The notes under the pieces are model-generated. The model saw only the letters and a program-made list of their open reading frames with translations. It did not search any database and was not told where the DNA came from. Shown here piece by piece: positions 14,656 to 62,059 of a stretch of 64,000 bases of DNA. Within the stretch, counting starts at the first letter, position 1. Every line of letters begins with the position of its first letter. The stretch spans positions 2,739 through 66,738 of the forward strand of contig DIUO01000010.1 in assembly GCA_002422365.1 (NCBI GenBank), written 5' to 3'. Source of the stretch: Proteobacteria bacterium UBA6156 (GTDB lineage Bacteria > Pseudomonadota > Alphaproteobacteria > UBA2136 > UBA6156). The position numbers were made by a program, and so were the translations under genes.

Positions 14656-14694
14656 AAACACAAAACACTAAGTACTAAATACTAAACACTAAAT
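14656..14694 (+). repeat. Family D CA-rich 7-mer microsatellite (D1)
   Basis: AAACACAAAACACTAAGTACTAAATACTAAACACTAAAT abutting the DUF1223 stop codon. Confidence 0.5.
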
Positions 14695-15378
14695 CCGCCC
14701 CATCCCCAGCACAGCCCCAGGCCCGCGCTCCTGCACAATCACCAGCGTTTGGGTGCCTTTGGGGCGCATGGGCTTGGGCAGGCGGGCGGTGTTGCCCTTA
14801 ATTTCAGCCTCCACCAACCCGGTGGTGCGCCACACCTTGGTGTCATCCACCGGGTCCAGGCCCATCACCCACACCACGGCATCGCGGCCGCGCAGGGCAG
14901 GGGGTATGTCGACCGTCAAGGCCCCGTCAGCGCCCACCTGCGGCGCCAGCACGTGCTTGGCGGGCAGGGCGCGGCCTTGCTCCAGCGCACTGCCCCAGCT
15001 GAACATCAGCGGCGGGTTCACCAAAATCTGCCCGTCTATCAGCGGCATAGGCGTAAACACCTGCCCGGCGCGCTTGCCTAATGTGTTGGAGTAATCATAT
15101 TGCCGCTGCGTCACCTCCGCCAACCCATGCGGGTCGCGCTGGGTGGGGCTGCGGTCCCAATAATCCACATGTTCAAACACCACCAGCAGGTCGGGGTTGG
15201 CGGCGGCCACACCTTTCATTTTGGCTTCGGCCATGGGGCAGCTGGGGCAGTATTTGCTGGTGAACATCTCCACCAGCACCGGCGGCCGGGCAGGGGTAGC
15301 AGGCGTGGCTGGCTCGGCCGCATAGCCCTGTGCCGCCACCAGCATACTCCAACTTAAAATCGCCACACGCCAACGCAT
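14689..15378 (-). CDS. DUF1223 thioredoxin-fold secreted protein
   Basis: Signal peptide, then VLVEMFTSKYCPSCPMAE (CxxC) and HVDYWD. Typical DUF1223 pattern. Confidence 0.7.
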   Translation of the reverse strand: MRWRVAILSWSMLVAAQGYAAEPATPATPARPPVLVEMFTSKYCPSCPMAEAKMKGVAAANPDLLVVFEHVDYWDRSPTQRDPHGLAEVTQRQYDYSNTLGKRAGQVFTPMPLIDGQILVNPPLMFSWGSALEQGRALPAKHVLAPQVGADGALTVDIPPALRGRDAVVWVMGLDPVDDTKVWRTTGLVEAEIKGNTARLPKPMRPKGTQTLVIVQERGPGAVLGMGRI

Positions 15379-15382
15379 TTGC

Positions 15383-16390
15383 TTACCCTTTCGGTTTCGG
15401 TGTTACCTTACCAGCCTTTGCAACGGGTGCGCCAGCCTTGCTGCCTTTTCGTTCACGTTTTAACCGTTGAGCCTCGCTGGCCGGGGCTTTGGCGGGTTTT
15501 TTGTCTTGGTAGGCCATACGGATGTCCTCCTCCCGCAACGCATCCATCACATCCAGCAGCAGGGTGCTGCGCAGCACTTTGCGGTCTTCGGTGCGCACCC
15601 ATGCTTCCAGGGTGCACATCACGCCGTGTTCGGTCAGGGTGTCCACGGCCAGGTGGGGCTCGGGGGTTTTCAGCACCAGCGGGTTGGCCACCATGGCGCG
15701 CTTAATAATGCCAAAGGCGCGCCAAATATCCACTTCGTGCCCCAAGCCAAATTCCACTTTCACCATGCGCATGCGGTTATAGGTGTGGTTGCGCAGGTTG
15801 TTTTCCCACAGCAAGCCATTGGGTATAAAAACGCGTATAAATTCAATGGTATTTACTTCTGTCGAAAACAACCCAATCCGCTTCACCGTCCCGCTCACCG
15901 TGGTGTTTTCCACCCAGTCGCCCACTTTCAGGGGCCGGTGCACCATCAGCATCAGCCCTCCGGCAATGTTTCCCAGCGTGCCGCGCAGGGCAAAGGCCAC
16001 GGCCAAACCCAGCGCACCCACCAGGGCGGCCAGAGTGGTGCTGCCAATGCCAAACAGAGACAACGCCAGCATAAAAATAGTAAAAAACAGCACAAACCGC
16101 GCGGTGCTGGCCAAAAAGGCCGCCAACGTCTCTTCCACATGGGCCTTTACCAGCACGGTGTTCAGGCGGGTGGCCAGCCAGCCGCAGGCCAACCAGCCCA
16201 CCACAATCAGGGCCAGCCCGGCCAGCACGCTCACCATCACTATCGGCAGTTGGTCAATCAGCTTCACGGCGGCCTGGTCTATCACTTGCAGGTCTTTGTT
16301 GGCCTGCAAATTGGCTTGCAGGTTAGATATCGCAGGTATGTTCAGTTTCAGGTTTTCCAGCAAACCGGGGGCAGGGGCGGGGGTGGCCAT
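15383..16390 (-). CDS. MscS-family mechanosensitive ion channel
   Basis: TM3-like GLAVAFALRGTLGNIAGGLMLMVHRPLKVGDWV motif followed by a beta-domain. Its stop is 4 nt from the start of the downstream DUF1223 gene. Confidence 0.85.
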   Translation of the reverse strand: MATPAPAPGLLENLKLNIPAISNLQANLQANKDLQVIDQAAVKLIDQLPIVMVSVLAGLALIVVGWLACGWLATRLNTVLVKAHVEETLAAFLASTARFVLFFTIFMLALSLFGIGSTTLAALVGALGLAVAFALRGTLGNIAGGLMLMVHRPLKVGDWVENTTVSGTVKRIGLFSTEVNTIEFIRVFIPNGLLWENNLRNHTYNRMRMVKVEFGLGHEVDIWRAFGIIKRAMVANPLVLKTPEPHLAVDTLTEHGVMCTLEAWVRTEDRKVLRSTLLLDVMDALREEDIRMAYQDKKPAKAPASEAQRLKRERKGSKAGAPVAKAGKVTPKPKG

Positions 16391-16553
16391 GGCAAAGGCT
16401 CTTTAATAGGTTAAACGAGACGACAAAAGCACGCGCAGCTCTCATCCATAGCCTCTGTTGTGGCGCAGCCGCCACCATGGCGTCAAGCGAATCCACACCC
16501 GCCGTAAGCAAACCTTGACCCCCTCGTCGCATCTCCGCCAATCTGCATTCATT

Positions 16554-20293: not shown

Positions 20294-20327
20294 AAAAAAA
20301 AACACGAAACACGAAACACGAAAACAC
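20294..20327 (+). repeat. Family D CA-rich microsatellite (D2)
   Basis: AAAAAAAAACACGAAACACGAAACACGAAAACAC ends 6 nt before the nuoC ATG. Confidence 0.7.
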
Positions 20328-20333
20328 TCGGGC

Positions 20334-21041
20334 ATGACCACCACCCCCCACATCGACACCCACCTAGACCTCAAAGGCCTGCACACCATGGCCGACTATC
20401 TGGCCAAAAAGCTACCCCAAGCACAGCTGAGCATTGCCGTGAGAGAACTCACTCTCACCATCGCCCCAGAGCACATCCCCGCCGCCATCGCCCTCCTGAA
20501 GGACGACAAAAAACTGCAATTCACCCAGTTGATAGACCTCTGCGGAGTCGACTACCTCGGCACCAAACACCCGCACCCCACACGCTTTGCCGTGGTTTAC
20601 CAGCTGCTGTCTATGGCCCACAACCAGCGCCTCCGCGTCAAAACCTACGTTGCCGAAGCCAACCCCGACACCCGACACCCGATACCCGATACCCTCTCCG
20701 TGCCCACCGTAACCCACCTTCACGCCAGCGCGGGCTGGTACGAGCGCGAAACCTACGACATGTACGGCATCAATTTCGTGGGCCACCCAGACCTCCGCCG
20801 CCTGCTCACCGACTACGACTTCGTCGGCCACCCTCTGCGGAAGGACTTCCCCCTGGAAGGCCACGTCGAAGTCTACTACGACGCGAAGGAAAAGCGCGTC
20901 GCCTACAAACCGGTCGACCTTCCTCAGGAACTTCGGCGCTTCGACAACGTTAGTGAATGGCAAGGCGCCACCGGCAATGCCGGGCGCGCTGCTGCCGACA
21001 ATACATTCACCAACTCGTACAATCCCGACGAGTTCAAATAA
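20334..21041 (+). CDS. nuoC: NADH-quinone oxidoreductase subunit C
   Basis: AGWYERETYDMYGINFVGHPDLRRLLTDY and LRKDFPL motifs. Confidence 0.92.
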   Translation: MTTTPHIDTHLDLKGLHTMADYLAKKLPQAQLSIAVRELTLTIAPEHIPAAIALLKDDKKLQFTQLIDLCGVDYLGTKHPHPTRFAVVYQLLSMAHNQRLRVKTYVAEANPDTRHPIPDTLSVPTVTHLHASAGWYERETYDMYGINFVGHPDLRRLLTDYDFVGHPLRKDFPLEGHVEVYYDAKEKRVAYKPVDLPQELRRFDNVSEWQGATGNAGRAAADNTFTNSYNPDEFK

Positions 21042-24569: not shown

Positions 24570-24603
24570 CCTGTTCACTGTTACCTGTTCTCTGTTCACT
24601 AAC
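24570..24603 (-). repeat. Family D-like 7-mer microsatellite in reverse orientation (D12)
   Basis: CCTGTTCACTGTTACCTGTTCTCTGTTCACTAAC (CTGTTNN units). Its complement resembles the TGAACAC units at 62040. Confidence 0.4.
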
Positions 24604-24687
24604 TTGCCACACCCGCAGGCACCATAACGCGCAAAACAGGGCAGGGGGGCTGCCAAAAGCCCCCATTTGGTTTAAGAATTCTCCATC

Positions 24688-28877: not shown

Positions 28878-31156
28878 TGCCCACCCGCCCCGCCACGCCC
28901 AAAACCAAAGCCGCCCCCACCGCCAAGGCAGGCGCACCCGCCCAAGTGGTCACTTCCAACGTGCCGCCTGCCGCGCCCAGCCCCGCATCCCAAGCGGCTC
29001 CCGCACCGCTCCCCCCGGCACCAGAAGGCTTCCTCAACGTCTTCGTCAACGGCAATCTCATTCACGTCAAACGCGGCAGCACCGTCATGCAGGCCTGCAC
29101 CCAGGCGGGGGCCGAGGTTCCGTTCTTCTGCTACCACGAGCGCCTCTCCATCGCCGGCAACTGCCGCATGTGTTTGGTCGAGGTCGAAGGCATGCCCAAA
29201 CCCATCGCCTCCTGCCACTGGCCGATTGCCGAAGGCATGAAAGTCAAAACCGACAGCCCCCTCACCACCGAGGCCCGCAAAGGCACCATGGAAATGCTGC
29301 TCATCAACCACCCGCTAGACTGCCCCATCTGCGACCAAGGCGGCGAATGCACCCTGCAAGACCTCTCGGTGGCCTATGGGTCGGATAGATCCGCCTACCA
29401 CGAATTCAAACGCGCCGTAGACGACAAAGACATCGGCAGCAAAATCAAAACCGTGATGACCCGCTGCATCCACTGCACGCGCTGCATCCGCTTCGCCACA
29501 GAGATCGCCGGAGTCGAAGAAATGGGCGCCACCGGGCGCGGAGAAAACATGCAAGTCGGCACCTATGTCGAGCACGCCCTTCAAAGCGAGCTTTCCGGCA
29601 ACATGATCGACCTCTGCCCCGTCGGCGCACTCACATCGCGCCCCTACGCCTTCACCGCCCGCCCGTGGGAGCTTGTGCGCACCACCTCCATCGACATCCT
29701 CGACGCGGTGGGCACCCCGATAACGGTCGACAACCGCCACGGCCAGGTCATGCGCACCCAACCGCAAGAAAACGCCGCCATTAACGAAGAATGGATGACC
29801 GACGCCGCGCGCTTCAGTTACGACGCTTTGCACACCAACCGCCTCACCACCCCGCTCATCCGCCGGGGAGGCGAACTTCAGCCCTGCGGCTGGCCAGAAG
29901 CCTTCACCTCCGCCAAAACCGCGCTGGCCCAACCCGTGGGCGGTATCCTCGGTGCCATGGCCAGTGCCGAAGACGCCCTCAGCTTCAAAATGTTCTTCGA
30001 AAATACACTCACTAGTAAGATGTACGACTGCCGCCCCGCAGGCAGCCAACTCGAAGGCTTTTACACCTTCAACACCCCGCTGATAGAATTTGAAAACGTC
30101 GACGCCGTCCTCCTCGTCGGCTGCAACCCGCGCTTAGAAGCCCCGCTGCTCAACGTCCGCCTGCGCCGCGCCGTAATCCGCCGCCGCGTGCCCGTTGCCG
30201 CCATCGGGCCGGATATGGACCTCACCTACCCCCACCAGAACCTCGGCAACGCACCGGATGCCCTCGAATCCCTCGCCAAATCCAAATTTGCCGAAGTCCT
30301 GAAATCCGCGCAAAAACCCGCCATCATCCTCTCCGCCAGCGTGCTTACCCGGCCCGACGGCCCCGCCATTCTGGCAACTCTCGAAAAACTCGCCAAAAAG
30401 TTCGGAGTCCAAAAAGTACTACAGAACGGAGAAGGCTGGAACGGCCTCAACATCCTCGCCGCCACCGCAGGCCGCATCACCGCGCTGGATATGCAAGCCA
30501 AAGCCACCCCCACCGCCGCCATCCTCAAATCCTACCAAACCGGCAAAACCGAAACGCTGATAGTCTACGGAGAAGACACAATTCTGCCGGAAGACATCGA
30601 ACCCGACACCAAAACACGAAACACGAAACACCAAACACTTATTTATATCGGCACCCACTTAACCCCCTTGGCGCAAATGGCCGACCTCGTCCTCCCCGCC
30701 GCCGCCTGGACCGAAAAATCCGGCCTCTATGCAAACTGCGAAGGCCGCGTGCAACTGGCCCACGCCGCCGTGCCCGCACCCTTAAACGCTAAGGAAGACT
30801 GGAAAATCTTCCGCGCCTTGAGCGAAGAACTCGGCACCCCGCTGCCCTTCAACACCCTCGCTCAACTCCGCAGCCTGGTGGCCAACCAACACCCCGCCTA
30901 CCAAGCCGAAAACTGGAACCGCATAACCCGGCGCACCCAAACCCCAACGCCCAACGCCCAAAACCCAACACCCATCACCTCCAAACCCTTCCAACCCGTC
31001 ATAACTGATTACTATCTGCGCCTCGAATACCTCCGCCAATCGCCCACCATGCATAAGTGCCAGAGCGAGGTCGCCACCGCCAAACTCGGCACAACCGCCA
31101 CACCACCTACACCGCTGCTCCCCGGCAAAACCAAATCCTCCCGCAAGGCCGCGTAA
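28877..31156 (+). CDS. nuoG: NADH-quinone oxidoreductase subunit G (with ~50-aa Pro/Ala-rich N-terminal extension)
   Basis: CYHERLSIAGNCRMCLVEV, HPLDCPICDQGGEC, CIHCTRCIRF and CPVGALT. No alternative start lies near the 2Fe-2S domain. Confidence 0.95.
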   Translation: MPTRPATPKTKAAPTAKAGAPAQVVTSNVPPAAPSPASQAAPAPLPPAPEGFLNVFVNGNLIHVKRGSTVMQACTQAGAEVPFFCYHERLSIAGNCRMCLVEVEGMPKPIASCHWPIAEGMKVKTDSPLTTEARKGTMEMLLINHPLDCPICDQGGECTLQDLSVAYGSDRSAYHEFKRAVDDKDIGSKIKTVMTRCIHCTRCIRFATEIAGVEEMGATGRGENMQVGTYVEHALQSELSGNMIDLCPVGALTSRPYAFTARPWELVRTTSIDILDAVGTPITVDNRHGQVMRTQPQENAAINEEWMTDAARFSYDALHTNRLTTPLIRRGGELQPCGWPEAFTSAKTALAQPVGGILGAMASAEDALSFKMFFENTLTSKMYDCRPAGSQLEGFYTFNTPLIEFENVDAVLLVGCNPRLEAPLLNVRLRRAVIRRRVPVAAIGPDMDLTYPHQNLGNAPDALESLAKSKFAEVLKSAQKPAIILSASVLTRPDGPAILATLEKLAKKFGVQKVLQNGEGWNGLNILAATAGRITALDMQAKATPTAAILKSYQTGKTETLIVYGEDTILPEDIEPDTKTRNTKHQTLIYIGTHLTPLAQMADLVLPAAAWTEKSGLYANCEGRVQLAHAAVPAPLNAKEDWKIFRALSEELGTPLPFNTLAQLRSLVANQHPAYQAENWNRITRRTQTPTPNAQNPTPITSKPFQPVITDYYLRLEYLRQSPTMHKCQSEVATAKLGTTATPPTPLLPGKTKSSRKAA
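30607..30638 (+). repeat. Family D CA-rich microsatellite inside nuoG (D3)
   Basis: CACCAAAACACGAAACACGAAACACCAAACAC, read in frame as TKTRNTKHQT. Confidence 0.7.
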
Positions 31157-33418: not shown

Positions 33419-33432
33419 GCCTCTCTAAACTC

Positions 33433-33518
33433 GCACCGTTTCCCGGGCTGCGGCGGGGTAAGTTTTGGAACAAAACTTGGGCCCCCGCCCAGACCCGGGA
33501 TCTGGAAAATACCAGCAC
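33433..33518 (+). repeat. Family A hairpin element, copy A5
   Basis: Central stem AAGTTTT-GGAAC-AAAACTT (compensated relative to A2). Starts 15 nt after the nuoI stop. Confidence 0.8.
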
Positions 33519-33582
33519 GACCAATCAAATCCAAATTGAAGCATCCAACCTAGAAAGCAAGAAACCAAAAATATAAAATCAA

Positions 33583-33668
33583 GCACGGATTCCCGGACGG
33601 TGATGGGGTGCGATTTGGAACAAATCGCGGGCCCCCATCCCGATCCGGGATCTGGAAAATATAAGCAC
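33583..33668 (+). repeat. Family A hairpin element, copy A6
   Basis: Outer stem GATGGGG/CCCCATC (compensated relative to GGCGGGG/CCCCGCC). Second tandem copy in the nuoI-nuoJ gap. Confidence 0.8.
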
Positions 33669-33695
33669 GAATATAACTATCAAAACAGTGCGACC

Positions 33696-33990
33696 ATGGC
33701 CAACCCCCACTATGTCTACATCCTCACCAATCAGCGCCATACCGTATTTTACGTCGGAGAAACCGCCGACCTTCCCCAACGTCTTTTCCGCCACAACAGC
33801 GGCTTTTACCCCAACGCGTTCACTAAAAAGTACAATGTAAACATATTGGGTATATTATGAAGAACATCTCAATCTCCATACCGCCAAAGAACGTGAGCAA
33901 AAACTTAAACGCTGGCAGCAAGCCTGGAAAGCACAGTTAGTGACCGACTTTAACCCAGGCTGGCATGACTTAGGCGCCGATTTGGGTTAA
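33696..33990 (+). pseudogene. GIY-YIG nuclease family gene with +1 frameshift
   Basis: Frame 1 gives MANPHYVYILTNQRHTVFYVGETADLPQRL...KKYNVNIL, then stops at 33858. The +1 frame from 33850 gives VYYEEHLNLHTAKEREQKLKRWQQAWKAQLVTDFNPGWHDL. An extra G lies in the GGG run at 33848-33850. Confidence 0.7.
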
Positions 33991-34927: not shown

Positions 34928-35358
34928 CCGTCACCCCCACCGTCCGCGTCGGTGTCGGCGTTTGGATAATCCACGACGGAAAAGTGCTGATGAATTATCG
35001 CATCAAGCCCCACGGCGGCGGCACCTGGGCGCCTCCCGGCGGTCACTTGGAAATGAACGAAAGCTGGGAAGACTGCGCGAAGCGGGAAGCCATGGAAGAA
35101 GCAGGACTTCAAATTACCAATATTGAGCTTTTCGCCGTCACGAATGATATCTTCCCGGAATCCGGAAAACATTATGTTACCCTCCACATGCAGGCACACA
35201 GCAGCACCAGCGAATTTACCAATATGGAACCCGATAAGTATCAGCAATACGGCTGGTACAAGTGGGAAGAACTCCCTCAGCCCTCTTTGCCATCGGTAGC
35301 CAACCTGCTCCAGCAAAACAAAAAACCACCCTATCTCAACGAAAACACCAAACACTAA
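34924..35358 (+). CDS. NUDIX hydrolase
   Basis: NUDIX box GGHLEMNESWEDCAKREAMEEAGL. The last codons (ENTKH) are encoded by the D4 microsatellite. Confidence 0.85.
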   Translation: MTVTPTVRVGVGVWIIHDGKVLMNYRIKPHGGGTWAPPGGHLEMNESWEDCAKREAMEEAGLQITNIELFAVTNDIFPESGKHYVTLHMQAHSSTSEFTNMEPDKYQQYGWYKWEELPQPSLPSVANLLQQNKKPPYLNENTKH

Positions 35359-35380
35359 AAACTAAACACGAAAACACTAA
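35341..35380 (+). repeat. Family D CA-rich microsatellite (D4)
   Basis: GAAAACACCAAACACTAAAAACTAAACACGAAAACACTAA spans the NUDIX stop and ends 4 nt before the nuoJ ATG. Confidence 0.7.
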
Positions 35381-35384
35381 ACCC

Positions 35385-36668: not shown

Positions 36669-37106
36669 ATGATCACCTTCCTCAAATACCTCGGCGCCTT
36701 CTGCCTCTTTACCATCGCGGCCTCGCTGGCATTTTGCAGCGTGGGTGTCTATCAGGGCGTGCAAACCGCCAACCGTTACCTTGCGGGGGCCGACAACTAC
36801 ACCTGCCGCCAGTTTGTGTATGACCTCGAAAACCCCACCACCGACAAATTCGCCCCCCTCGCCATCGCCGCCATAGCCTATGGGGTAATGCCGAGGGAGG
36901 ACGGCGTTATCGACGACAACCAAACCGAAATGGAACACAAAGGTATCGAACCCGCCGTGCAAAAAGTGCTGGCACTCTGCAAAGGCAAGCCAGAGGCTCT
37001 TGTGCTCAACGTCTACGCCGCCAGCATCGCCAGCCCTACGGCCAGCCTCACCCAGCCTGTTGCGCCCGAACCCATCACTCCCGATACTCAAAACACTCAA
37101 AACTAA
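36669..37106 (+). CDS. hypothetical membrane-anchored/secreted protein
   Basis: N-terminal hydrophobic segment. Its C-terminal PDTQNTQN is encoded by microsatellite D5. Confidence 0.45.
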   Translation: MITFLKYLGAFCLFTIAASLAFCSVGVYQGVQTANRYLAGADNYTCRQFVYDLENPTTDKFAPLAIAAIAYGVMPREDGVIDDNQTEMEHKGIEPAVQKVLALCKGKPEALVLNVYAASIASPTASLTQPVAPEPITPDTQNTQN

Positions 37107-37125
37107 ACACGAAAAACAAAACAAG
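37086..37125 (+). repeat. Family D CA-rich microsatellite (D5)
   Basis: ACTCAAAACACTCAAAACTAAACACGAAAAACAAAACAAG. Confidence 0.6.
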
Positions 37126-37140
37126 AATAAAGGCACCCCC

Positions 37141-37677
37141 ATGCTCACCACACTCATCCGCTTCAACATCGCATTCATGCTCTCGCTCCTCTCCCTCGCT
37201 ATCGTTGGCTTTATCGGGCTGGTGTGCTGGCTCTATGCCTCCCAGCTTCTCAAGGCAAAATCCACCGTAACCTTCTTCACAACCACCACCTGCGCCCAAT
37301 TCCTCGCCGATGTAAAATCCCAGAATTCCACAAAAATCGAGCCCTACGTCACTCATTTCGAGACTCTCGACACCGAAGAAGTCGCCACGTTCGACAAACC
37401 CCTGTCCGAATCCGAAGCCGGATTCACCACCCTCATGCGGGGCTGCTACAAGCAACCAAACCACACCCTGCGGCAGATAATGCTGGAAGGCGAGGGGCGC
37501 AGCCTTGCGGCTCAGCTGACCGACCTGTACAACACCATCGATGGTGAACTGAAAACCCCCAACCCCATGGCGCCGGAGTTTTACATCAGCCCCACCGAAG
37601 TCATAAGCCCCACTCTCATGACACCTCCTTCCGAAGGCGCCGACGCAACCTCCAAGCCCGAAAAAACAAAAAACTAA
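37141..37677 (+). CDS. hypothetical membrane-anchored protein
   Basis: ATG at 37141. TM segment FMLSLLSLAIVGFIGLVCWLYA. Its C-terminal EKTKN is encoded by D6. Confidence 0.45.
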   Translation: MLTTLIRFNIAFMLSLLSLAIVGFIGLVCWLYASQLLKAKSTVTFFTTTTCAQFLADVKSQNSTKIEPYVTHFETLDTEEVATFDKPLSESEAGFTTLMRGCYKQPNHTLRQIMLEGEGRSLAAQLTDLYNTIDGELKTPNPMAPEFYISPTEVISPTLMTPPSEGADATSKPEKTKN

Positions 37678-37725
37678 ACACAAAAAACTAAACACCAAAC
37701 ACGAAACACTAAACACTAAAACACT
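37661..37725 (+). repeat. Family D CA-rich microsatellite (D6, longest copy)
   Basis: AAAAAACAAAAAACTAAACACAAAAAACTAAACACCAAACACGAAACACTAAACACTAAAACAC ends 8 nt before the nuoL ATG. Confidence 0.75.
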
Positions 37726-37733: not shown

Positions 37734-39809
37734 ATGTCCCCTCTCGCGCCCCACATCGTTGCCCAACTCACCGCACTTGCAGTGCTGCTGCCTGCCATGG
37801 GCGCGCTGCTGGGGGCGTTCACGTTCCTGCTCTGGCCCACGCTTAAGGCTAAATTAGAGGCCCACGACGCCCACACCCACCACGAGCCCGAATCCCCCAC
37901 CGCACCCCCCATCGCCCACCACGCCGCCATGGCCCTCACCACCGGCAGCGTGCTGGCGGCGGCGGCCCTCAGCTGGTGGCTGTTTGTGGGGCTTAATACC
38001 GGCACCATCAGCCCCGCCACCACCCACTGGTTCACCTGGTTCAGCGCGGGCAGCTGGTCGGTAACGTTTGGCACCATGCTCGACAAACTCTCCGCCACCA
38101 TGCTCATCGTCGTCACCACCGTCTCGGCCTGCGTGCACGTCTACAGCTGGGGCTATATGGCCGACGACGTTGCAAAACGCCGCTTCTTCATCTACCTCTC
38201 CGCCTTCACCTTCGCCATGCTCATGCTGGTCACCGCGCCCAACCTCGCGCAAATGTTTTTGGGGTGGGAAGGGGTCGGCGTCTGCTCCTATCTCCTCATA
38301 GGCTTCTGGTATCACAAAGCCACCGCCAACGCCGCCGCCATCAAGGCCTTTATCGTCAACCGGGTGGCCGACGCCGCCATGCTCATCGGCCTCTTCATCC
38401 TCGTCCAAACCTTCGGCACACTCACCTATACCGAAATTTTCACTCAATTAGAGAACCAAACCCCCACCAGCCTCGCCACCTCCAGCCCCATTAGCCTGGC
38501 GGCCTTGCTGCTCTTCATCGGTGCTATGGGCAAATCCGCCCAGTTCGGGCTGCACACCTGGTTGCCGGACGCCATGGAAGGCCCCACCCCCGTCTCCGCC
38601 CTCATCCACGCCGCCACCATGGTCACCGCAGGCGTGTTCCTGCTCTGCCGTATGTCGCCACTGTACGAGGCCGCGCCGGATGTCCTGACTATCGTCGGCT
38701 GGGTCGGCGCCATCACCGCCCTGTTCGCCGCCACGGTGGGCCTCACCCAAACCGATATCAAACGCGTCATCGCCTACTCCACCTGCTCGCAACTGGGCTA
38801 CATGTTCTTCGCCATCGGCGTGTCGGCCTACCCCGCCGCCATGTTCCACCTCACCACCCACGCGTTCTTCAAGGCGCTGCTGTTCTTGGGCGCGGGCTCG
38901 GTCATCCATGGCATGCACCACGAGCAAAACATCTTCAAATACGCTTCCTCCGGTTACATCCTGCGCAAACTCCTCCCCGTCACCTATGTCCTCATGTGGC
39001 TGGGCAGCTTGGCGCTCGCCGGTATCCCGCCGTTTGCAGGGTTTTTCAGTAAAGACCTCATCATAGAATCCGCCTTCGCCGCCCCCGGCAACACCGGCAT
39101 CCCGCTCTATATCATTGGCACGCTGGCCGCCGCGCTCACCGCCATCTACGGCTTCCGCATCATCTTCATGAGCTTCCACAACCCCGCAAAAACCTCCGAA
39201 ATCGTCCACACCAAAACACCCAACACGAAACACCAAAACACGAAACACGAACACACCAGTACCCCCCACGAATCCCCCTGGACCATGCTCGCCCCCATGC
39301 TCCCTCTGGCCCTGGGTGCCGTGCTGGGCGGCTACCTGCTTAAAAATATGGGCACATTAGAATGGTGGAACGGCGCCATCGTCATCCACCACGCGCACAC
39401 GGCCCTGCATAACGCCCACCACATTCCCGGCTGGGCCAAGGCATTGCCGCTGGTGCTGGCTGTCTCCGGCATTGCGCTGGCGTTCTACCTCTTTGTGCGC
39501 CACCGCAACATTCCGCAGCGCATTGCGCAGGCCGTGCCCGCCGCCTACGCCTTCAGCTATCATAAATGGTATATCGACGAAGCCTATCAAGTCCTCTGGG
39601 TCAACCCCACCGCCAGCATCGCCGCCTTCTTTGCCGAGTGGGGAGACAAACGCAGCATAGATGCCCTCCTTAACGGCGGCGCCTCCACCGTCGCAGGCTT
39701 CGGCCAGTGGCTCCGCCAGGCCCAAACCGGCTACGTCACCCACTACGCCTTCGCCATGCTGTTGGCTCTCACCCTAGGCCTCGGCTATCTCCTCTGGAAA
39801 GTCATGTAA
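37734..39809 (+). CDS. nuoL: NADH-quinone oxidoreductase subunit L
   Basis: 691 aa. WEGVGVCSYLLIGFWY, GKSAQFGLHTWLPDAMEGPTPVSALIHAATMVTAG. Confidence 0.96.
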   Translation: MSPLAPHIVAQLTALAVLLPAMGALLGAFTFLLWPTLKAKLEAHDAHTHHEPESPTAPPIAHHAAMALTTGSVLAAAALSWWLFVGLNTGTISPATTHWFTWFSAGSWSVTFGTMLDKLSATMLIVVTTVSACVHVYSWGYMADDVAKRRFFIYLSAFTFAMLMLVTAPNLAQMFLGWEGVGVCSYLLIGFWYHKATANAAAIKAFIVNRVADAAMLIGLFILVQTFGTLTYTEIFTQLENQTPTSLATSSPISLAALLLFIGAMGKSAQFGLHTWLPDAMEGPTPVSALIHAATMVTAGVFLLCRMSPLYEAAPDVLTIVGWVGAITALFAATVGLTQTDIKRVIAYSTCSQLGYMFFAIGVSAYPAAMFHLTTHAFFKALLFLGAGSVIHGMHHEQNIFKYASSGYILRKLLPVTYVLMWLGSLALAGIPPFAGFFSKDLIIESAFAAPGNTGIPLYIIGTLAAALTAIYGFRIIFMSFHNPAKTSEIVHTKTPNTKHQNTKHEHTSTPHESPWTMLAPMLPLALGAVLGGYLLKNMGTLEWWNGAIVIHHAHTALHNAHHIPGWAKALPLVLAVSGIALAFYLFVRHRNIPQRIAQAVPAAYAFSYHKWYIDEAYQVLWVNPTASIAAFFAEWGDKRSIDALLNGGASTVAGFGQWLRQAQTGYVTHYAFAMLLALTLGLGYLLWKVM
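39207..39257 (+). repeat. Family D CA-rich microsatellite inside nuoL (D7)
   Basis: CACACCAAAACACCCAACACGAAACACCAAAACACGAAACACGAACACACC, read in frame as HTKTPNTKHQNTKHEHT. Confidence 0.7.
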
Positions 39810-41408
39810 ATGAATCATCTCCTCACCCTCCTCATCGCCCTCCCGCTGGCCAGCGCGCTGTTCACCTACGCCGCGCCCACGCGCTACACCAGGCAACTCG
39901 CCCTGGCCCTCAGCCTCATCCCGCTGGCCCTGTGCGTGCCCTTGTTCCAGCACTTCAACCCGGCCCAGCCTGGCTTACAGTTTACCGAGTCCCACGCCTG
40001 GCTCCCCGCCTTCAACATCACCTATGCACTGGGGATAGACGGCCTCTCCCTCCCGCTCATCGCCCTCACAGCGCTCCTCACCCCGCTTTGCCTCCTCGCC
40101 AGCTGGGGCGTCCAAAAAAATCCGCAGGGCTTTTTCGCCAGTTTTCTGGCATTAGAGGCCTTTGTCATCGGCGTCTTCGCCGCGCAAGATTTCATCCTGT
40201 TCTATCTGTTCTGGGAGGCCATGCTCATCCCCATGTTCCTCCTCATCGGCCTGTGGGGAGGCGAAAACCGCGTCTACGCCGCCCTCAAATTCTTCCTCTA
40301 CACCTTTGTGGGCTCCGTGCTTATGCTCATCGCGGGCCTCTGGCTTTACAGCATCACGGGTAGCTTTAGTCTGGAGCTCTGGCAAAACACCACCCTCACA
40401 CTCGGTGCCCAAAAGTGGCTGTTCCTCGCCTTCTTCGCCGCCTTCGCGGTCAAGGTTCCCATGTGGCCGTTCCATACTTGGCTGCCGGATGCCCACGTCC
40501 AAGCCCCCACCGCAGGTTCCGTCATCCTGGCGGGCGTGCTGCTCAAAATGGGGGCCTACGGCTTCCTGCGCTTTTGTTTGCCGATGTTCCCCGAGGGCTC
40601 CGCCTACTTCGCCCCCATGGTCTTCACCCTTTCCGCCGTCGCCGTGGTCTACGCCGCGCTGGTGGCCTATGTGCAAACCGATATTAAGAAGATGATCGCC
40701 TACTCCTCCGTCTCCCACATGGGCTTCGTCACGCTGGCTGCCTTTTCCGGCACGGTCACCGGCCTGCACGGCAGTCTGCTGGTCATGGTCAACCACGGCA
40801 TCGTCTCCGCCGGGTTGTTTTTGGGGGTAGGGGTCATTTACGAGCGCCTGCACACCCGCCAACTCGCCCACTTCGGCGGCCTCGCCAAAATCATGCCCGC
40901 CTATGCTTTTGCCATGATGCTCCTCACCCTCGCCGCCGTAGCCTTGCCGGGCACGAATAGCTTTGTCGGAGAATTCCTCGCCCTCATGGGCAGCTGGCCC
41001 ACCGCCCCCGTCTACACCGCCATCGCCACCTCCGGCGTGGTCTTCGGCGCGCTCTACATGCTCCACCTCTACCGTGGCATGTTCTTCGGCACGCCGTCCG
41101 AGACTGTCCACCACCATGTGAATGACCTCAAAGACCTCACCCCGCGCGAGTGGCTCACCTTCGCGCCCCTCCTCGCCCTCATCCCGCTGCTGGGCCTCAT
41201 GCCCTCACTGGTGCAAAACCTCTGGCAACAGCCGGTGCAGGCCATTTCGCAAGAATACCTCCCCGCCCTCCAAGCCCGCATCGCCCACCAACCCGGCATG
41301 CCGATAATTCTGCCCGAAGCCGAACCAGCCCCCGAGCCCGCCTCGACACCCCTAGCAACCCCCATCGTCTCGCAAACCCTAACCCCCACACCAACCACCA
41401 CTTACTAA
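39810..41408 (+). CDS. nuoM: NADH-quinone oxidoreductase subunit M
   Basis: Starts 1 nt after the nuoL TAA. FAVKVPMWPFHTWLPDAHVQAPTAGSVILAGVLLKMG. Confidence 0.96.
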   Translation: MNHLLTLLIALPLASALFTYAAPTRYTRQLALALSLIPLALCVPLFQHFNPAQPGLQFTESHAWLPAFNITYALGIDGLSLPLIALTALLTPLCLLASWGVQKNPQGFFASFLALEAFVIGVFAAQDFILFYLFWEAMLIPMFLLIGLWGGENRVYAALKFFLYTFVGSVLMLIAGLWLYSITGSFSLELWQNTTLTLGAQKWLFLAFFAAFAVKVPMWPFHTWLPDAHVQAPTAGSVILAGVLLKMGAYGFLRFCLPMFPEGSAYFAPMVFTLSAVAVVYAALVAYVQTDIKKMIAYSSVSHMGFVTLAAFSGTVTGLHGSLLVMVNHGIVSAGLFLGVGVIYERLHTRQLAHFGGLAKIMPAYAFAMMLLTLAAVALPGTNSFVGEFLALMGSWPTAPVYTAIATSGVVFGALYMLHLYRGMFFGTPSETVHHHVNDLKDLTPREWLTFAPLLALIPLLGLMPSLVQNLWQQPVQAISQEYLPALQARIAHQPGMPIILPEAEPAPEPASTPLATPIVSQTLTPTPTTTY

Positions 41409-41428
41409 ACACAAAACACAAAACACGA
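41406..41428 (+). repeat. Family D CA-rich microsatellite (D8)
   Basis: TAAACACAAAACACAAAACACGA begins at the nuoM stop codon (41406-41408) and ends 7 nt before the nuoN start. Confidence 0.6.
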
Positions 41429-46068: not shown

Positions 46069-46174
46069 GCACCGTTTCCCGGGGTGGCAGGGTCACATTT
46101 GGTAACAAATGTGGGGCCCCCGCCCACACCATTCCGGCGGAGGCCGGAACCCGGGATCTGGAAAATACAAGCAC
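46069..46174 (+). repeat. Family A hairpin element, copy A7 (carries a nested 24-nt hairpin insert)
   Basis: Central stem CACATTT-GGTAAC-AAATGTG. Extra ACACCATTCCGGCGGAGGCCGGAA sits before CCCGGGATCT. Starts 17 nt after the rnj stop. Confidence 0.75.
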
Positions 46175-46212
46175 CGCCCCCAAAGCAAAAGCCCGGCAAC
46201 CGCCGGGCTTCG

Positions 46213-51101: not shown

Positions 51102-51115
51102 ACGTAGCCGAAAAA

Positions 51116-51200
51116 GCGCCGATTCCCGGGTTGCGGCGGGGTACGGTTGGGTTACAAATCGCGGGCCCACAGCCCAACCCGGGGTCTCGATGAGACAAGC
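51116..51200 (+). repeat. Family A hairpin element, degenerate copy A8
   Basis: GCGCCGATTCCCGGGTTGCGGCGGGGTACGGTTGGGTTACAAATCGCGGGCCCAC...GGGGTCTCGA. Starts 15 nt after the stop at 51101. Confidence 0.5.
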
Positions 51201-51440
51201 CCCTTTGCAAACCCTCCAACTTCTCCTGCCATCCGTAAGGGCATCGTAACGTGTATTTTCACCCGTTTCGCTTAAGTATCTGTAAGCGCATGCCTAGCTC
51301 CTGTAACATAAAAACCATGCACAGCGTCCCATTCGCCACGGGCGCTTTTCAGGCAGGCTGTTTTCGGCTACTGTGGGCTTTAACAGGGCAGGGGTGCCGC
51401 ATCGGCGGCATGCCTTGCAAATCAAGGAGAATACACAACC

Positions 51441-52797: not shown

Positions 52798-53079
52798 ATG
52801 AACAAGGCTCCCTTGATTATCGCCGGTATCGCCGTTTTGGCTGTTGCTGCTTACCTGGTGTACAACAACAACAACGCAACCCCGGTCGAAGAAGCCGCTC
52901 CCGCTCCCATGGAAGCTCCTATGCCGATGGAAGCCCCCATGCCGATGGAAGCACCCGCTCCGATGGACGCTCCCGCCCCGATGGACGCTCCGGCTCCGAT
53001 GGAAGCCCCCATGCCGATGGACGGCGCCGCTCCTGAAGCCGCTCCGGCTCCCGAAGCTGCCCCGGCCGCTGCTCAGTAA
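52798..53079 (+). CDS. membrane-anchored Met/Pro/Ala-rich hexapeptide-repeat protein (candidate Cu(I)/metal-binding)
   Basis: AAGGA sits 8 nt before the ATG at 52798. TM segment LIIAGIAVLAVAAYLVY, then (MEAPMP/MDAPAP) x7. Confidence 0.6.
   Translation: MNKAPLIIAGIAVLAVAAYLVYNNNNATPVEEAAPAPMEAPMPMEAPMPMEAPAPMDAPAPMDAPAPMEAPMPMDGAAPEAAPAPEAAPAAAQ
52909..53034 (+). repeat. 18-bp in-frame tandem repeat x7 (ATGGAAGCNCCNNNNCCG)
   Basis: Units start at 52909, 52927, 52945, 52963, 52981, 52999 and 53017 (the last is degenerate). Confidence 0.85.
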
Positions 53080-55681: not shown

Positions 55682-55699
55682 CTGCTCGAACCGAATCTC

Positions 55700-55786
55700 G
55701 CACCGTTTCCCGGGCTGCGGCGGGGTCAAATTTGGAACAAATTTGGGGCCCCCGCCCAGACCCGGGATCTCGAATATATAAGCACG
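55700..55786 (+). repeat. Family A hairpin element, copy A9
   Basis: Central stem CAAATTT-GGAAC-AAATTTG. Starts 19 nt after the stop at 55681. Confidence 0.8.
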
Positions 55787-55821
55787 ATCCCCCACCAACC
55801 CGGCCCCACCGCACTCACGGG

Positions 55822-56221: not shown

Positions 56222-57841
56222 ATGGCCGCCCCCCAAACACCCCGAAACGCACCTCTTCTCCAGGTTACCAACCTCACCGTAGCCACGGCCACCACGCCGC
56301 TGGTTCAGGGCGTCAGCTTTACCCTGAATAAGGGCGAAACGCTGGCGGTGGTCGGAGAATCCGGCAGCGGCAAAACCCTCACCGCCCTGGCCGTCATGGG
56401 GCTGCTGCCGCAGGGCCTCAGCATGCAGGCGCAGTCCCTCAGCTTCGCCGACAAAAACCTCCTCACCCTCACCACCCCCCAGCGCCGCGCTCTTCGTGGC
56501 AAACGCATGGCGATGATCTTCCAAGAACCCGCCACCGCCCTCAACCCCGTCCTCACATGCGGCTATCAGGTGGAAGAAGCCTTCCTCATTCACAGCCCCA
56601 AAATGACGAAAAAGCAGCGTAAAACCCGCGTCCTCAAACTCTTCGAGCAAGTCAAACTCCCCAACCCAGAAAGCATGTTCAGCGCCTATCCGCACCAAAT
56701 CTCCGGCGGCCAGCGCCAACGCGTGATGATCGCCATGGCCCTGGCCCACGGGCCAGAACTTCTGGTGGCCGACGAACCCACCACCGCACTCGATGTGACG
56801 GTGCAAGCCGAAATCATCAAATTGGTCAAAAGCCTGCAAAAAGAGCTCGGCATGGCCATGCTCTGGATAACCCACGACTTCGGCGTGGTGAAGCAACTGG
56901 CCGACACCACCATCGTCATGCAACAGGGCAAAATTGTCGAGGAAGGGCCCACCACCCAAATCCTCTCCAAGCCCAAACACGCCTACACCAAGCAACTCCT
57001 CGCCGCCACCCTCCAACTTAACCACCAACCTGTCTCACCTAAAACACCAAACTCCAAACCAGAAACACTCCTGCAAGCCACCAACCTCTCCCACACCTAC
57101 GCCGCCCGCAGCAGCTGGTTCAGCCGCACGCAGGGCACTCCCGCCCTCCAAAACGTCTCCTTCACCCTCAATGCCGGAGAAACCTTGGGCGTGGTCGGAG
57201 AATCCGGCAGCGGCAAATCCACTCTCGCCCGCGTCCTCACCCGCCTGAACGAAAGCAAGCACCCGCAAGGCAGCATCGTGTTTCTGGGTCAAAACGTATT
57301 GCACCTCAAAGGCGAAGCCCTCCGCCAAACCCGCAAAAATATGCAGATGGTCTTCCAAGACCCCGTCACTTCGCTCAACCCGCGCCTGCCCATCGGCCAG
57401 AGCATTTTAGAAGGGGTCGAGGCCCACAACACCCTGCCCAAAGCCCAACGCGCCGCCTATGTCGCCAAATTGCTGAAAGAAGTCGGCCTACCGTCCGACG
57501 CCGCCACCCGCCTGCCGCACCAGTTTTCCGGCGGCCAGCGCCAGCGCATCGCCATTGCCCGCGCCCTGGCCCTGCAACCCAAATTGGTGATTGCCGACGA
57601 ACCCGTCTCCGCGCTCGATGTCTCTGTCCAGTCCCAAATCCTCAAGCTGTTCCAAAGCATCCAAAAGGAGTACGCCACCGCCTTCGTCTTCATCAGCCAC
57701 GACCTCCGCGTCATCTCGCACCTCGCCCACAACGTGCTGGTCATGCACAACGGAGAAGTGGTCGAACAAGGCCCCACCACCCAAATCTTCAACACCCCCA
57801 AGCACCCCTACACCCAAAAACTCCTCAAAGCCGTCATCTAA
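56222..57841 (+). CDS. fused double ABC ATP-binding protein (oligopeptide/YejF-like)
   Basis: Two cassettes: Walker A GESGSGKT and GESGSGKS, signatures ISGGQRQR and [11 protein letters not shown] at 56222. Confidence 0.9.
57041..57069 (+). repeat. Family D-like CA-rich tract in the inter-cassette linker (D9)
   Basis: AAAACACCAAACTCCAAACCAGAAACACT, read in frame within [11 protein letters not shown]. Confidence 0.4.
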
Positions 57842-57879: not shown

Positions 57880-57885
57880 AAGTCG

Positions 57886-58204: not shown

Positions 58205-58327
58205 ACCCGGCCCCACAGCCCAAGCGGGAAACCGTGCCTTGGGGTCAGGTTTTCCAAAAAATCCCATTTTTTGAGAAAACCTCCCACCAGGCACCACCCC
58301 TACCCATCTCAAGCACTTCCTGTAAAT
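58205..58327 (+). repeat. Family B repeat, copy B5 (full length)
   Basis: ACCCGGCCCCA..., AAACCGTGCC, hairpin GGTTTTCCAAAAAATCCCATTTTTTGAGAAAACC, CCTCCCACCAGGCACCACCCCTACCC, GCACTTCCTGTAAAT. Confidence 0.6.
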
Positions 58328-58340
58328 CAAGGGTTAAAAC

Positions 58341-58658
58341 CTAAAACCCATCTGCAAGTTTCTTCTCAAGTTCCCACTGTAAGTCGCTCCATGCAGGGTT
58401 AAATCCTTCGACCAAAGCCACTTTCCATTCTCGTTTCCACCCTTTTATCTTCTCCTCTCGCACCCGCGCCGCCGTATAATCATCCCAAATTTCATAATAC
58501 ACCAAATGCCGCGCCTTATATTTTCTGGCCCATACAGAACCTCCGTCCCTCACCCCCGCGTGTTGCAAAGCCCGGCCTGGTATATCCCCGCTCATCCCCG
58601 TATAAATGGCTCCCTCCCTGGGCCTGCTGCACATCAGGTAAATGCCATAACGCTTCAT
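58341..58658 (-). CDS. GIY-YIG nuclease family protein (small, URI domain only)
   Basis: GIYLMCS...IYTGMSGDI, LVYYEIW, REEKIKGWKREWKVALVEGFNPAWSDL. Its start abuts the radC stop. Confidence 0.8.
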   Translation of the reverse strand: MKRYGIYLMCSRPREGAIYTGMSGDIPGRALQHAGVRDGGSVWARKYKARHLVYYEIWDDYTAARVREEKIKGWKREWKVALVEGFNPAWSDLQWELEKKLADGF

Positions 58659-59336: not shown

Positions 59337-59418
59337 TAAGCGCAGCCTATCAGAAACAATCCATTCCCCAAGTAAAAAAAGAAGGGCGCAGCCCTCCTAA
59401 TCCCCAATCCCTAACCCC

Positions 59419-60204: not shown

Positions 60205-60261
60205 CACAAAATCCTAATATCAATCACTTATTCTGCCAACTACCTACTGACAACTCCCCAC

Positions 60262-60951: not shown

Positions 60952-60963
60952 AGCCAACCCTAC

Positions 60964-61002
60964 CACAAAACACTAGACACTAAACACCAAACACGAAACA
61001 CT
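60964..61002 (+). repeat. Family D CA-rich microsatellite (D10)
   Basis: CACAAAACACTAGACACTAAACACCAAACACGAAACACT ends 5 nt before the ATG at 61008. Confidence 0.65.
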
Positions 61003-61007
61003 AGCGC

Positions 61008-61820
61008 ATGGCCCCCCGCAAACTCCTCGTCTTCGACCTCGAAACCGTGCCCGACATGGCCCTCGCGCGCCAACTCTGGCCAGAAGAAACCGCAGGTTTG
61101 TCCGACCTCGACACCGTCGAATTCATCTACGCGCACCACCGCAAGGCCAGCAGCACGGGGAGCGACTTCCCCCGCCCATCCTTCCACAAAATCGTCGCCA
61201 TCGGCTGTTTGTTGGCCGATATCGAATACGAAAACAACACCGAAACCTACCACTTCCGCAAAGTGGGGTGTATAGGAGAAGAAACCGACGACGAAGCCAC
61301 CCTGCTGCAAAAATTCTTCGACTTCGGCGCGCGCGAGCAACTACGCCTCGTCAGCTTCAACGGCCTGGGCTTCGACATCCCCGTGCTCAAGCTCCGCGCC
61401 CTCCGCCACCATATTCCGGCCAAATGGTTCATGAACCACCTGTTCAGCAAATGGGATAACTACCACACCAAAAACGCGCTTACCTACCATGCCGACCTCG
61501 CCGAAATGTTCGGCTCCTACCGCGCCATGCCGAAGCTGGACGAAGTCTGCACCCTCGCAGGCCTGCCGGGTAAACTCGATGTCTCCGGCGCCAAAGTCTA
61601 CGAAATGCACCTCAGCGGCAACATGCAGGGCATCCGCGACTACTGCGAAACCGACGTGCTCAACACCTACCTCCTCTACCTCTACCACCAGCACCTCGGC
61701 GGAATTCTCCCAACGGAAATCCTCCACGACGAGTTCGAAAAAGTCCGCGAGCGCCTCGCCACCGAAGGCCCCAAACGCCCCCACCTCACCCAATTCCTAG
61801 AAGCCTGGAATAAAGAATAA
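61008..61820 (+). CDS. DnaQ/PolB-exonuclease-like 3'-5' exonuclease (RNase H fold)
   Basis: LLVFDLETVPD (ExoI), LVSFNGLGFDIPVL (ExoII), YCETDVLNTYLLYL (ExoIII). Confidence 0.75.
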   Translation: MAPRKLLVFDLETVPDMALARQLWPEETAGLSDLDTVEFIYAHHRKASSTGSDFPRPSFHKIVAIGCLLADIEYENNTETYHFRKVGCIGEETDDEATLLQKFFDFGAREQLRLVSFNGLGFDIPVLKLRALRHHIPAKWFMNHLFSKWDNYHTKNALTYHADLAEMFGSYRAMPKLDEVCTLAGLPGKLDVSGAKVYEMHLSGNMQGIRDYCETDVLNTYLLYLYHQHLGGILPTEILHDEFEKVRERLATEGPKRPHLTQFLEAWNKE

Positions 61821-61849
61821 TGGTAAGATTAAGTTTCAAAATAAGCCAC

Positions 61850-61980
61850 CAAACAGTGGGGTTGTGTCACCCCGGAAGCTTAGCGGGTGGCTTAAATGGG
61901 GTAGGGGCCCCCTTTAAGCCGGGACCCGCTAGCTATCCGGGGCCCACCCCCGCCGGGAGGCCCGCCGGAGGCTTAATATC
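61850..61980. repeat. Family C GC-rich nested hairpin element (C2)
   Basis: TAGCGGGT[GGCTTAAATGGGGTAGGGGCCCCCTTTAAGCC]GGGACCCGCTA. The apical GGGGTAGGGGCCCCC is shared with C3 and C4. Confidence 0.5.
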
Positions 61981-62007
61981 CCTTGAATTGCACGACTATT
62001 GATAAAA

Positions 62008-62059
62008 TAAAAACAAACTCAACATTGAAAACAGACCACTGAACACGGAAACACTGAAC
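62008..62059 (+). repeat. Family D-like CA-rich tract (D11)
   Basis: TAAAAACAAACTCAACATTGAAAACAGACCACTGAACACGGAAACACTGAAC runs right up to the ATG at 62060. Confidence 0.5.

Follow-up and report, generated by a model that had tools for sequence, protein, structure and literature searches.

Introduction

Heptanucleotide units make up the most abundant class of long simple sequence repeats (LSSRs) in many genomes, with polymerase slippage as their proposed cause (Mrazek 2007, as cited in PMC4679880). In Xanthomonas and Nostoc, heptamers of the units GGGAATC and GGGGAYT, respectively, lie between the same genes in related species and vary there in length and sequence (Rehm 2015, PMC4692102). Another such repeat, TAACTGA, occurs in marine Beggiatoaceae and in some cyanobacteria and Bacteroidetes; its function is unproven, and S1, Csp or CsrA have been suggested as its partners (MacGregor 2015, PMC4679880). 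Work on translation initiation provides a second point of comparison, as (CA)n tails are ribosome standby sites in Escherichia coli that raise initiation in a length-dependent manner, with S1 as the suspected partner (Sterk 2018, PMC5934652), and CA-rich leaders have been reported to enhance translation (Martin-Farmer and Janssen 1999, cited in PMC5934652). Here, we analyse tandem arrays of the unit AAACACN in a stretch of 64,000 nt (hereafter, the window) from contig DIUO01000010.1 of the uncultured alphaproteobacterium UBA6156, where they lie before start codons and inside genes of the complex I operon and its neighbourhood.

To our knowledge, the function of bacterial heptanucleotide repeats has never been tested, and we know of one detailed account of start-abutting heptamers without a Shine-Dalgarno (SD) sequence, which comes from uncultivable giant sulfur bacteria. 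The clade studied here is a second, independent case, and it brings comparisons in which arrays are kept at the same gene junctions, relatives with and without arrays, an apparent link to extreme strand bias and translated loops in complex I. If the arrays promote SD-independent initiation, they would offer a natural, tunable design for a 'standby site'; if they do not, they would show how mutation bias and slippage shape leaders and protein loops.

AAACACN arrays compared with known heptamer repeats

The arrays of the window are of the same kind as the heptanucleotide LSSRs and the cyanobacterial short tandemly repeated repetitive sequences (STRRs), and stand closest to the start-proximal TAACTGA repeats of Beggiatoaceae, a very close precedent that the first-pass annotation of this DNA had missed. 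The two share a 7-nt unit in tandem copies (two to six or more for TAACTGA), a mostly intergenic location and a forward orientation, and they end a few nucleotides before the starts of housekeeping genes at which an SD is rare. In both, some copies overlap the upstream stop codon, the unit (here AAACACT) gives stops in three frames, the few copies in open reading frames (ORFs) fall outside conserved domains, and no RNA structure is predicted. Thus tandem 7-nt organisation, forward start-proximal placement, rarity of an SD and stop overlap were all found here, whereas the unit sequence is another one: AAACACN has one free position, and its host is an alphaproteobacterial clade. Furthermore, the G, C and A variants of AAACACN are stop-free and are therefore translated in core proteins, intragenic copies are far commoner than for TAACTGA, and several unrelated units coexist, with all copies on the C-rich strand.

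With LSSRs and STRRs in general the arrays have in common the excess and dominance of period 7, the enrichment between genes, the occupation of the same gene pairs in relatives with variable arrays at orthologous sites, and a proposed origin by slippage. However, the Xanthomonas, Nostoc and STRR units are G-rich and quadruplex-forming, or unrelated, and do not notably abut starts, whereas AAACACN is A/C-rich and structure-free, stands in the place of the SD and enters coding sequence. As in the CA-rich standby sites, a single-stranded A/C-rich stretch of 20–65 nt adjoins the start codon, and an unstructured stretch of this type was indeed found beside the initiation region. The E. coli cases are engineered or concern a single gene, and they have an SD, in contrast to the natural 7-nt arrays without SD that precede many genes here. 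Novel features of the window are the AAACACN unit and its host clade, the presence of several unit families side by side, an apparent link to extreme strand bias and the unusual frequency of in-frame copies in core subunits of complex I. On balance, the arrays are probably repeats born by slippage on an A+C-biased strand and fixed where they are tolerated, which between genes would serve as passive, unstructured, SD-independent leaders.

The arrays are a true repeat family

A scan of the window for the pattern AAACACNAAACAC with at most one mismatch returned 28 matches, all 28 on the plus strand, against an expectation of 0.45 and a maximum of 3 in 100 dinucleotide-preserving shuffles. This excess of about 60-fold bears out the first-pass proposal of a true repeat family. 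Tandem Repeats Finder (TRF) reported period-7 arrays at 14656, 20300, 30612, 35343, 37669, 39214, 41407 and 60964, and also heptamer arrays of other units (CCCGACA at 20664, CACCCAA at 30934 and CTGTTCA at 24571). Over 81 kb of the source contig, period 7 was dominant, with 13 arrays of at least 2.8 copies compared with at most five for any other period, and 8 of the 12 AAACACN arrays ended 0–13 nt 5′ of an ATG on the same strand. AAACACN arrays hold 3–9 copies in 20–65 nt, with no constant length and no defined ends. Intergenic arrays are in the majority, although the coding fraction is 0.87; about six copies in the 64 kb are intragenic.

Twelve tracts had been listed as AAACACN in the first-pass annotation. 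Most of them stand, on the plus strand, but the tract at 24570, listed on the minus strand, has the unit CTGTTCA, and those at 57041 and 62008 are degenerate (Table 1). Gene identities were confirmed with Pfam and public gene calls, which gave a map with the nuoA-N complex I operon, a duplicated ABC ATPase, sfsA, a PolB-like exonuclease gene (exo) and a CinA-like gene.

Intercistronic arrays occupy the position of the SD

The arrays before nuoC, nuoJ, ORF 37141, nuoL, nuoN, exo and the CinA-like gene were proposed to be start-proximal, and the distances that we read from the sequence, 0–13 nt to the ATG, agree with this. None of 15 array-preceded genes had an SD, as defined in the TAACTGA paper (PMC4679880), compared with 58 of 175 other gene starts of the clade (Fisher p = 0.006), which substantiates the earlier remark that such genes lack one. 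Over all 190 clade starts, about one third carry an SD, visible as G-richness at −13 to −8. In the window and its relatives, 56% of 175 starts have C at −1 and 43% have it at −2 (e.g. CCCC ATG, ACC ATG), and there is next to no G at −1.

When folded alone, the tracts had a predicted energy of 0 kcal/mol, including the longest one (37661). For the region from −40 to +40, the mean predicted fold was −5.0 kcal/mol for array genes, −11.5 kcal/mol for SD-less genes and −14.6 kcal/mol for SD genes. The intercistronic copies place a G-poor stretch, predicted to be fully unstructured, in the SD position of the mRNA. ATG, GTG and TTG were absent from 7 of 8 intergenic tracts checked, the degenerate tract at 62008 holding one such codon. 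Units ending in T are abundant in the intergenic arrays, and (AAACACT)3 contains TAA in each of the three frames. Arrays hold the ends of four upstream ORFs. Three of these endings, the tails ENTKH*, DTQNTQN* and EKTKN*, had been listed in the first-pass annotation and were confirmed by translation, and the nuoM stop also proved to lie inside an array. T-rich units of the other families likewise adjoin stop codons.

A role as an A/C-rich, structure-free, SD-independent leader is plausible, as it fits both the folding prediction and, by analogy, the work on CA-rich standby sites. Between co-transcribed genes the arrays form the spacer, in which T-ending units, through the TAA that they give in every frame within three units, often provide the upstream stop. 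The unstructured stretch may then act as a passive single-stranded standby, that is, as a landing site of the S1 type, or as a spacer for re-initiation. Such a leader would permit or mildly enhance SD-independent initiation, with no specific switch involved.

Rho-binding RNA is generally C-rich, G-poor and unstructured. Since the arrays have the same properties and one of them lies in a divergent promoter region, we also considered a role in transcription or RNA processing, in which the arrays would be rut-like Rho-loading sites, intercistronic entry points for RNases or spacers in promoter DNA. We regard this as quite improbable, because the whole sense strand of the genome has more C than G, so that the arrays are not distinctive, polarity within the complex I operon would be harmful, and specific support is lacking. 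A promoter and terminator scan of the window gave counts at the level of shuffled sequence, with no promoter- or terminator-like matches at the arrays, and no Rfam family reached the gathering threshold in the whole window. Sites of the Hfq (ARN)n or Crc 'CA-motif' (AANAANAA) type were dropped as candidates on account of their period of 3, compared with the array period of 7.

Array orientation follows the C-rich strand

The orientation of the arrays follows the C-rich DNA strand, a feature that had gone unnoticed in the first-pass annotation. The plus strand of the window is C-rich and A-rich throughout, with a GC skew of −0.207 in plus-strand genes, −0.125 in minus-strand genes and −0.18 in intergenic sequence. 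As the skew persists over the minus-strand genes, most of the bias belongs to the DNA strand and not to the coding sense. The leading strand is usually G-rich, and the C-rich gene-carrying strand found here is the opposite of this. A strong skew of C over G (about −0.2) and of A over T on the gene-rich strand was also seen in the related loci L005, L137, L138, L139 and L143, and L140 and L144 had a GC skew of −0.10.

All arrays, whatever their unit, are C-rich on the plus strand. Pooling the array-bearing genomes, a sense array abutted the start of 24 of 167 plus-strand genes and of 0 of 36 minus-strand genes (Fisher p = 0.0096). With selection alone, about five minus-strand genes with a CA-rich leader array would be expected, and their absence speaks for a strand-biased, mutational source of the arrays. 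Where arrays do lie beside minus-strand genes (sfsA in two genomes, and the methyltransferase operon), they are antisense to them, in the G/U-rich orientation. This holds for the tract at 14656, the only one located solely among minus-strand genes: it is an AAACACN array on the plus strand, as listed in the first-pass annotation, but its neighbours on either side are minus-strand genes, to which it is antisense.

In-frame copies lie in variable protein segments

Alignments supported the claim that the copies in NuoG and NuoL are lineage-specific in-frame segments in variable loops. In NuoG, TKTRNTKH is an insertion of eight residues that is absent from L138, from L139 and from a mitochondrial-type 75 kDa (NDUFS1-family) subunit. 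The NuoL segment is part of a hypervariable His/Lys-rich loop directly before the conserved PHESPW motif, and the ABC segment falls in the variable linker that joins the two ATPase domains of the protein. The G, C and A variants of the unit are open and read KHETRNT, KHQTPNT and similar. Intragenic arrays avoid in-frame T units, admitting only units that create no in-frame stop, have lengths that keep the frame and were found only in segments that vary among relatives. AAACACN units probably arise and homogenise in place by replication slippage on a strand with a strong excess of A+C. Arrays were found only at sites that tolerate such sequence, and the stop-free, frame-keeping copies are read as Thr/Lys/Asn/His-rich insertions in hypervariable loops and linkers of NuoG, NuoL and the ABC ATPase.

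Arrays recur at the same junctions while their units turn over

Related loci were taken from six related genomes, the closest NuoL relatives being 70–78% identical. Many period-7 and some period-8 and period-10 arrays were present in the window, L005, L137/L143 and L139, which have a gene-strand GC skew near −0.2, and few in L138. No arrays were found in L140 and L144, with their weak skew of −0.10, in 21 kb each. Several heptamer, octamer and decamer families thus exist in the clade, AAACACN being one among them, a diversity that the first-pass annotation had missed; the units in relatives are either related or different (ACACCGA, ACGCAAA, ACCAGTC, CCCGACA and ATAACCCGAC).

The spacer between nuoM and nuoN holds an array of AAACACA in the window, CCGACATAAT in L005, ACCGCTA in L137 and ACACCGA/ACACTAA in L139. 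Before nuoK, arrays of ATAACCCGAC (L005), AACACCA (L137) and ACCAGTC (L139) were found, whereas the window has no array at this site and a TAGGAG SD instead. Arrays are further shared before nuoL (window and L137), before nuoJ (window and L005) and before the exo and CinA-like genes (window and L143); at the CinA site, the array is clearer in L143 and L140 has a single unit. Inside genes, shared sites were found twice in NuoG, in the NuoL loop and in a biotin/lipoate ligase (BPL) gene. The NuoG site at 30934 carries CACCCAA x6.6 in the window and CCCGACA x4.4 in L005, and the arrays in the NuoL loop have the unit AAACACG in L005 and CAAAACG in L137. Intragenic arrays are thus kept at orthologous positions as well as the intercistronic ones, and positional persistence alone is no evidence of a leader function. 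A search of metagenomes for relatives of the clade-specific ORF 37141–37677 found none.

The leader of exo is informative about array age. The Exo protein of the window is 89% identical to that of L140 and 76% identical to that of L143. The array is present in the window and L143, where the free position of the unit follows the same order (C, G, T), and the sfsA/exo spacer of L140 (57 nt, compared with 56 in the window) aligns with it and resembles a copy that point mutations have eroded. Accordingly, the array predates the split of window and L143.

This history also bears on the resemblance to Rickettsia palindromic elements (RPEs) that the first-pass annotation had put forward. RPEs are mobile palindromic elements of roughly 100–150 bp with conserved sequence. 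The arrays share with them the lineage-specific, in-frame insertion at tolerated surface positions of conserved proteins, and many copies occur within one region. However, AAACACN arrays are short, periodic and non-palindromic, with a predicted fold of 0 kcal/mol and no inverted repeats at the tracts; they have neither defined ends nor a constant length, their unit and copy number vary at orthologous sites, and no transposase is associated with them. Moreover, L140 does not have an empty site in this spacer but a homologue of the array that has the same length and carries point mutations. The missing palindrome or inverted repeats and the decayed L140 site led us to reject this explanation, and we consider an RPE-like mobile element spreading into genes in frame to be extremely improbable.

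Arrays are stable across assemblies

Repeats near starts and inside genes, with a unit length that is not divisible by three, are the classic anatomy of phase-variable simple sequence repeats (SSRs) (PMC4679880), and the contingency SSRs of Haemophilus, Neisseria and Moraxella resemble the arrays in these respects. Copy-number slippage could in this case toggle the downstream or host gene, and the first-pass annotation had pointed to a comparison of copy numbers as a sign of it. The window is part of a 103-kb contig of ENA ERZ27315062. In this assembly, JGI 3300001605 and several Logan assemblies (at least five samples), every covered tract was identical; these independent assemblies cover most tracts, although the samples may share one population, which makes this a limited test of copy-number variation. 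The assemblies differed only by homopolymer or N errors outside the tracts, and the identity of the tracts shows that the arrays are not assembly artefacts. As no copy-number difference between samples was seen, phase variation was rejected. The arrays are also short, the genes that carry them have housekeeping functions (complex I, uppS), and point substitutions account for most differences between orthologous arrays of the window and L005. Contingency loci are therefore a highly unlikely explanation, and by sequence comparison the arrays are old, slow-evolving and not hypermutable, in contrast to contingency SSRs.

Tolerated repeats or a selected initiation signal

The most serious alternative is that AAACACN is a selected signal for initiation or regulation that replaces the SD, with a specific binding site for S1 or a Csp-like protein, the intragenic copies being by-products. 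In agreement with this, arrays and SDs are mutually exclusive, arrays are start-proximal in spacers with spare room, and diverged relatives have them at the same junctions, by retention or recurrence, with the order of variable bases conserved in the exo leader. In addition, a single AAACAC is 7-fold commoner within 20 nt of array-less starts, on their upstream side, than in 20-mers of coding sequence (this value rests on 5 of 175 starts). The same idea was put forward for TAACTGA (PMC4679880), and CA-rich enhancers are known (PMC5934652). On the other hand, not one of the 36 minus-strand genes has a sense array and one array is antisense in a minus-strand operon. The intragenic arrays, which are unable to be leaders, persist equally well at orthologous positions. 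Furthermore, the units at one junction differ widely between relatives, close relatives lack arrays and the downstream genes show no functional theme. Taken together, we judge a selected signal of this kind to be possible but doubtful. We give no more credence to a broader form of the idea, in which the arrays are selected SD-replacing pads where 30S/S1, re-initiating ribosomes or a dedicated single-strand RNA-binding protein would land. These pads would be kept before nuoN (after nuoM), nuoK, nuoL, exo and the CinA-like gene while their sequence turns over, and the same process would seed new loops in respiratory proteins.

Several observations nevertheless weigh against slippage-born repeats that are merely tolerated as passive leaders. 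In the spacers with spare room, the AAACACN array lies far from the stop and close to the start (gaps on the stop and start side of 43 and 8 nt for uppS, 187 and 0 nt for CinA, and 26 and 2 nt for cutA of L005); start-proximal placement was thus seen in three of three such spacers, a sample too small for significance. The exo-leader array is common to lineages whose Exo proteins are only 76% identical, a distance at which neutral intergenic DNA should not align, and such persistence of junctions over deep divergence may reflect positive selection and not mere tolerance. Regarding the leader role itself, about two thirds of the array-less genes also lack an SD, which means that arrays are not required for SD-less initiation, and the low structure of array leaders follows from their composition and is not an independent sign of function. 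Finally, all data come from one contig per genome and from one replichore, so that effects of strand and of gene orientation are not cleanly separated.

AAACACN triplets in other phyla

To place the pattern in a wider context, we scanned 185,579 species genomes across phyla for AAACACN x3 and took loci from the matches listed. Among these matches, many phyla were represented (Bacteroidota, Planctomycetota, Desulfobacterales, Nostoc and others), a scatter which indicates that the pattern is not lineage-diagnostic; the source genome was not among the matches listed. An ORF of at least 80 codons started at most 40 nt downstream in 42 of 109 listed matches in sense and in 24 of 109 in antisense, compared with 32% of random positions, which is a crude and weak test. 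Five loci from other phyla (L024, L038, L049, L056 and L065) contain plus/minus pairs of AAACACN x3 that are 60–100 nt apart, an inverted arrangement unlike that of the window.

Table 1. Repeat arrays and dispersed hairpin repeats of the window (positions in nt; the distance is from the array end to the ATG of the gene named).
Position	Strand	Element	Context	Distance to ATG (nt)	Evidence
14656..14693	+	AAACACN array, about 5 units, partly degenerate (AAGTACT, AAATACT)	Overlaps the stop of a minus-strand DUF1223 gene; 76 nt upstream of a minus-strand methyltransferase start; antisense to both		TRF, pattern scan
20294..20328	+	A-run, then AAACACG x3 and AAAACACT	Fills the 50-nt nuoB-nuoC spacer; no SD	5 (nuoC, 20334)	
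20664..20694	+	CCCGACA x4.4 (other unit)	In frame within nuoC		TRF
24571..24600	+	CTGTTCA x4.3; not an AAACACN member, same general class	Begins 8 nt past an alpha/beta hydrolase stop; precedes a terminator-like hairpin (24645-24664)		TRF
30607..30638	+	AAACAC(G/G/C/T) array	In frame in nuoG, read TKTRNTKH		TRF, alignment
30934..30979	+	CACCCAA x6.6 (other unit)	In frame in nuoG (TQTPTPNAQNPTP)		TRF, alignment
35341..35384	+	Array of about 6 units	Last codons and TAA stop of a NUDIX gene (ENTKH*); reaches the nuoJ ATG	0-2 (nuoJ, 35385)	
37086..37127	+	Degenerate array	C-terminus and stop of ORF 36669-37106 (DTQNTQN*)	13 (ORF 37141)	
37661..37725	+	Longest array, about 8-9 units	Gives ORF 37141-37677 its C-terminus and stop (EKTKN*)	8 (nuoL, 37734)	
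39207..39258	+	Array without in-frame T-containing (stop-forming) unit	In nuoL, translated HTKTPNTKHQNTKHEHT		TRF, alignment
41406..41427	+	AAACACA x2 and AAACACG	Overlaps the nuoM stop	8 (nuoN, 41436)	
57041..57069	+	Weak degenerate tract	Read KTPNSKPET in the linker of a YejF/DppD-type ABC protein		
60964..61003	+	Array of about 5.7 units	Separates the divergent sfsA (minus) and PolB-like exonuclease (plus) genes, in a 56-nt spacer; doubles as an antisense, G/U-rich leader of sfsA	About 5 (exonuclease gene, 61008)	
62008..62059	+	Degenerate AAACAC/GAACAC-type tract	Start-proximal end of a 239-nt spacer	0 (CinA-like gene, 62060)	
3321-3438, 4171-4288, 7436-7553, 9401-9518, 33424-33541, 33574-33691, 46080-46197, 51108-51225, 55691-55808	+	Dispersed hairpin repeat copies			

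Other features of the window and its relatives

The complex I operon (18867–42905) is split by small unrelated genes encoding GNAT, PRA-PH/MazG, NUDIX, CutA1, S51 peptidase, alpha/beta hydrolase, GIY-YIG and unknown proteins, and these inserted genes differ between relatives. Stand-alone GIY-YIG genes of 85–105 aa were found at 33603–33860 (plus), 58341–58658 (minus) and 62800–63096 (plus), as well as at 16714–16995 of L126.

A dispersed intergenic repeat of about 85–118 nt, with the consensus core ACAAATCGCGGGCCCCCGCCCGTATCCGGGATCTGGAAAATACAAGC and no Rfam match, is present in nine copies in the 64 kb, all on the plus strand (Table 1). A small GIY-YIG gene has two of these copies, one on each side of its start. 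The repeat is predicted to form one long imperfect hairpin, with 26 consensus pairs of which 10 show two-sided compensatory changes (RNAalifold, −38.7 kcal/mol), and in this model it looks like an element of the repetitive extragenic palindrome (REP) or miniature inverted-repeat transposable element (MITE) type, or a structured RNA.

Further repeats were observed in the window. A family of 58–102 nt ending in CACTTCCTGTAAAT is dispersed at 430–531, 4337–4394 and 58248–58349, and a pair of 102-nt repeats, 95% identical and 188 nt apart, lies at 63138–63239 and 63326–63427. Three consecutive small minus-strand ORFs, at 63638–64000 of the window and 12631–14170 of L126, each have before them a similar hairpin-like motif (GGTGGCCAGACCACC), then GAAACC and an SD-like GGAG. 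The small ORF at 52798–53079 contains a coding tandem repeat of 18 nt in about seven copies (52878–53057), which encodes six residues rich in Ala, Pro, Met and Glu; similar repeats of this type occur at the syntenic site in L140 and L143, the called ORF of L140 being on the opposite strand. Lastly, L143 has a 45-nt tandem repeat in 5.2 copies at 16299–16530, with an internal palindrome (GAGCAGCCTAAGCTGCTC), in a region annotated as a small minus-strand ORF.

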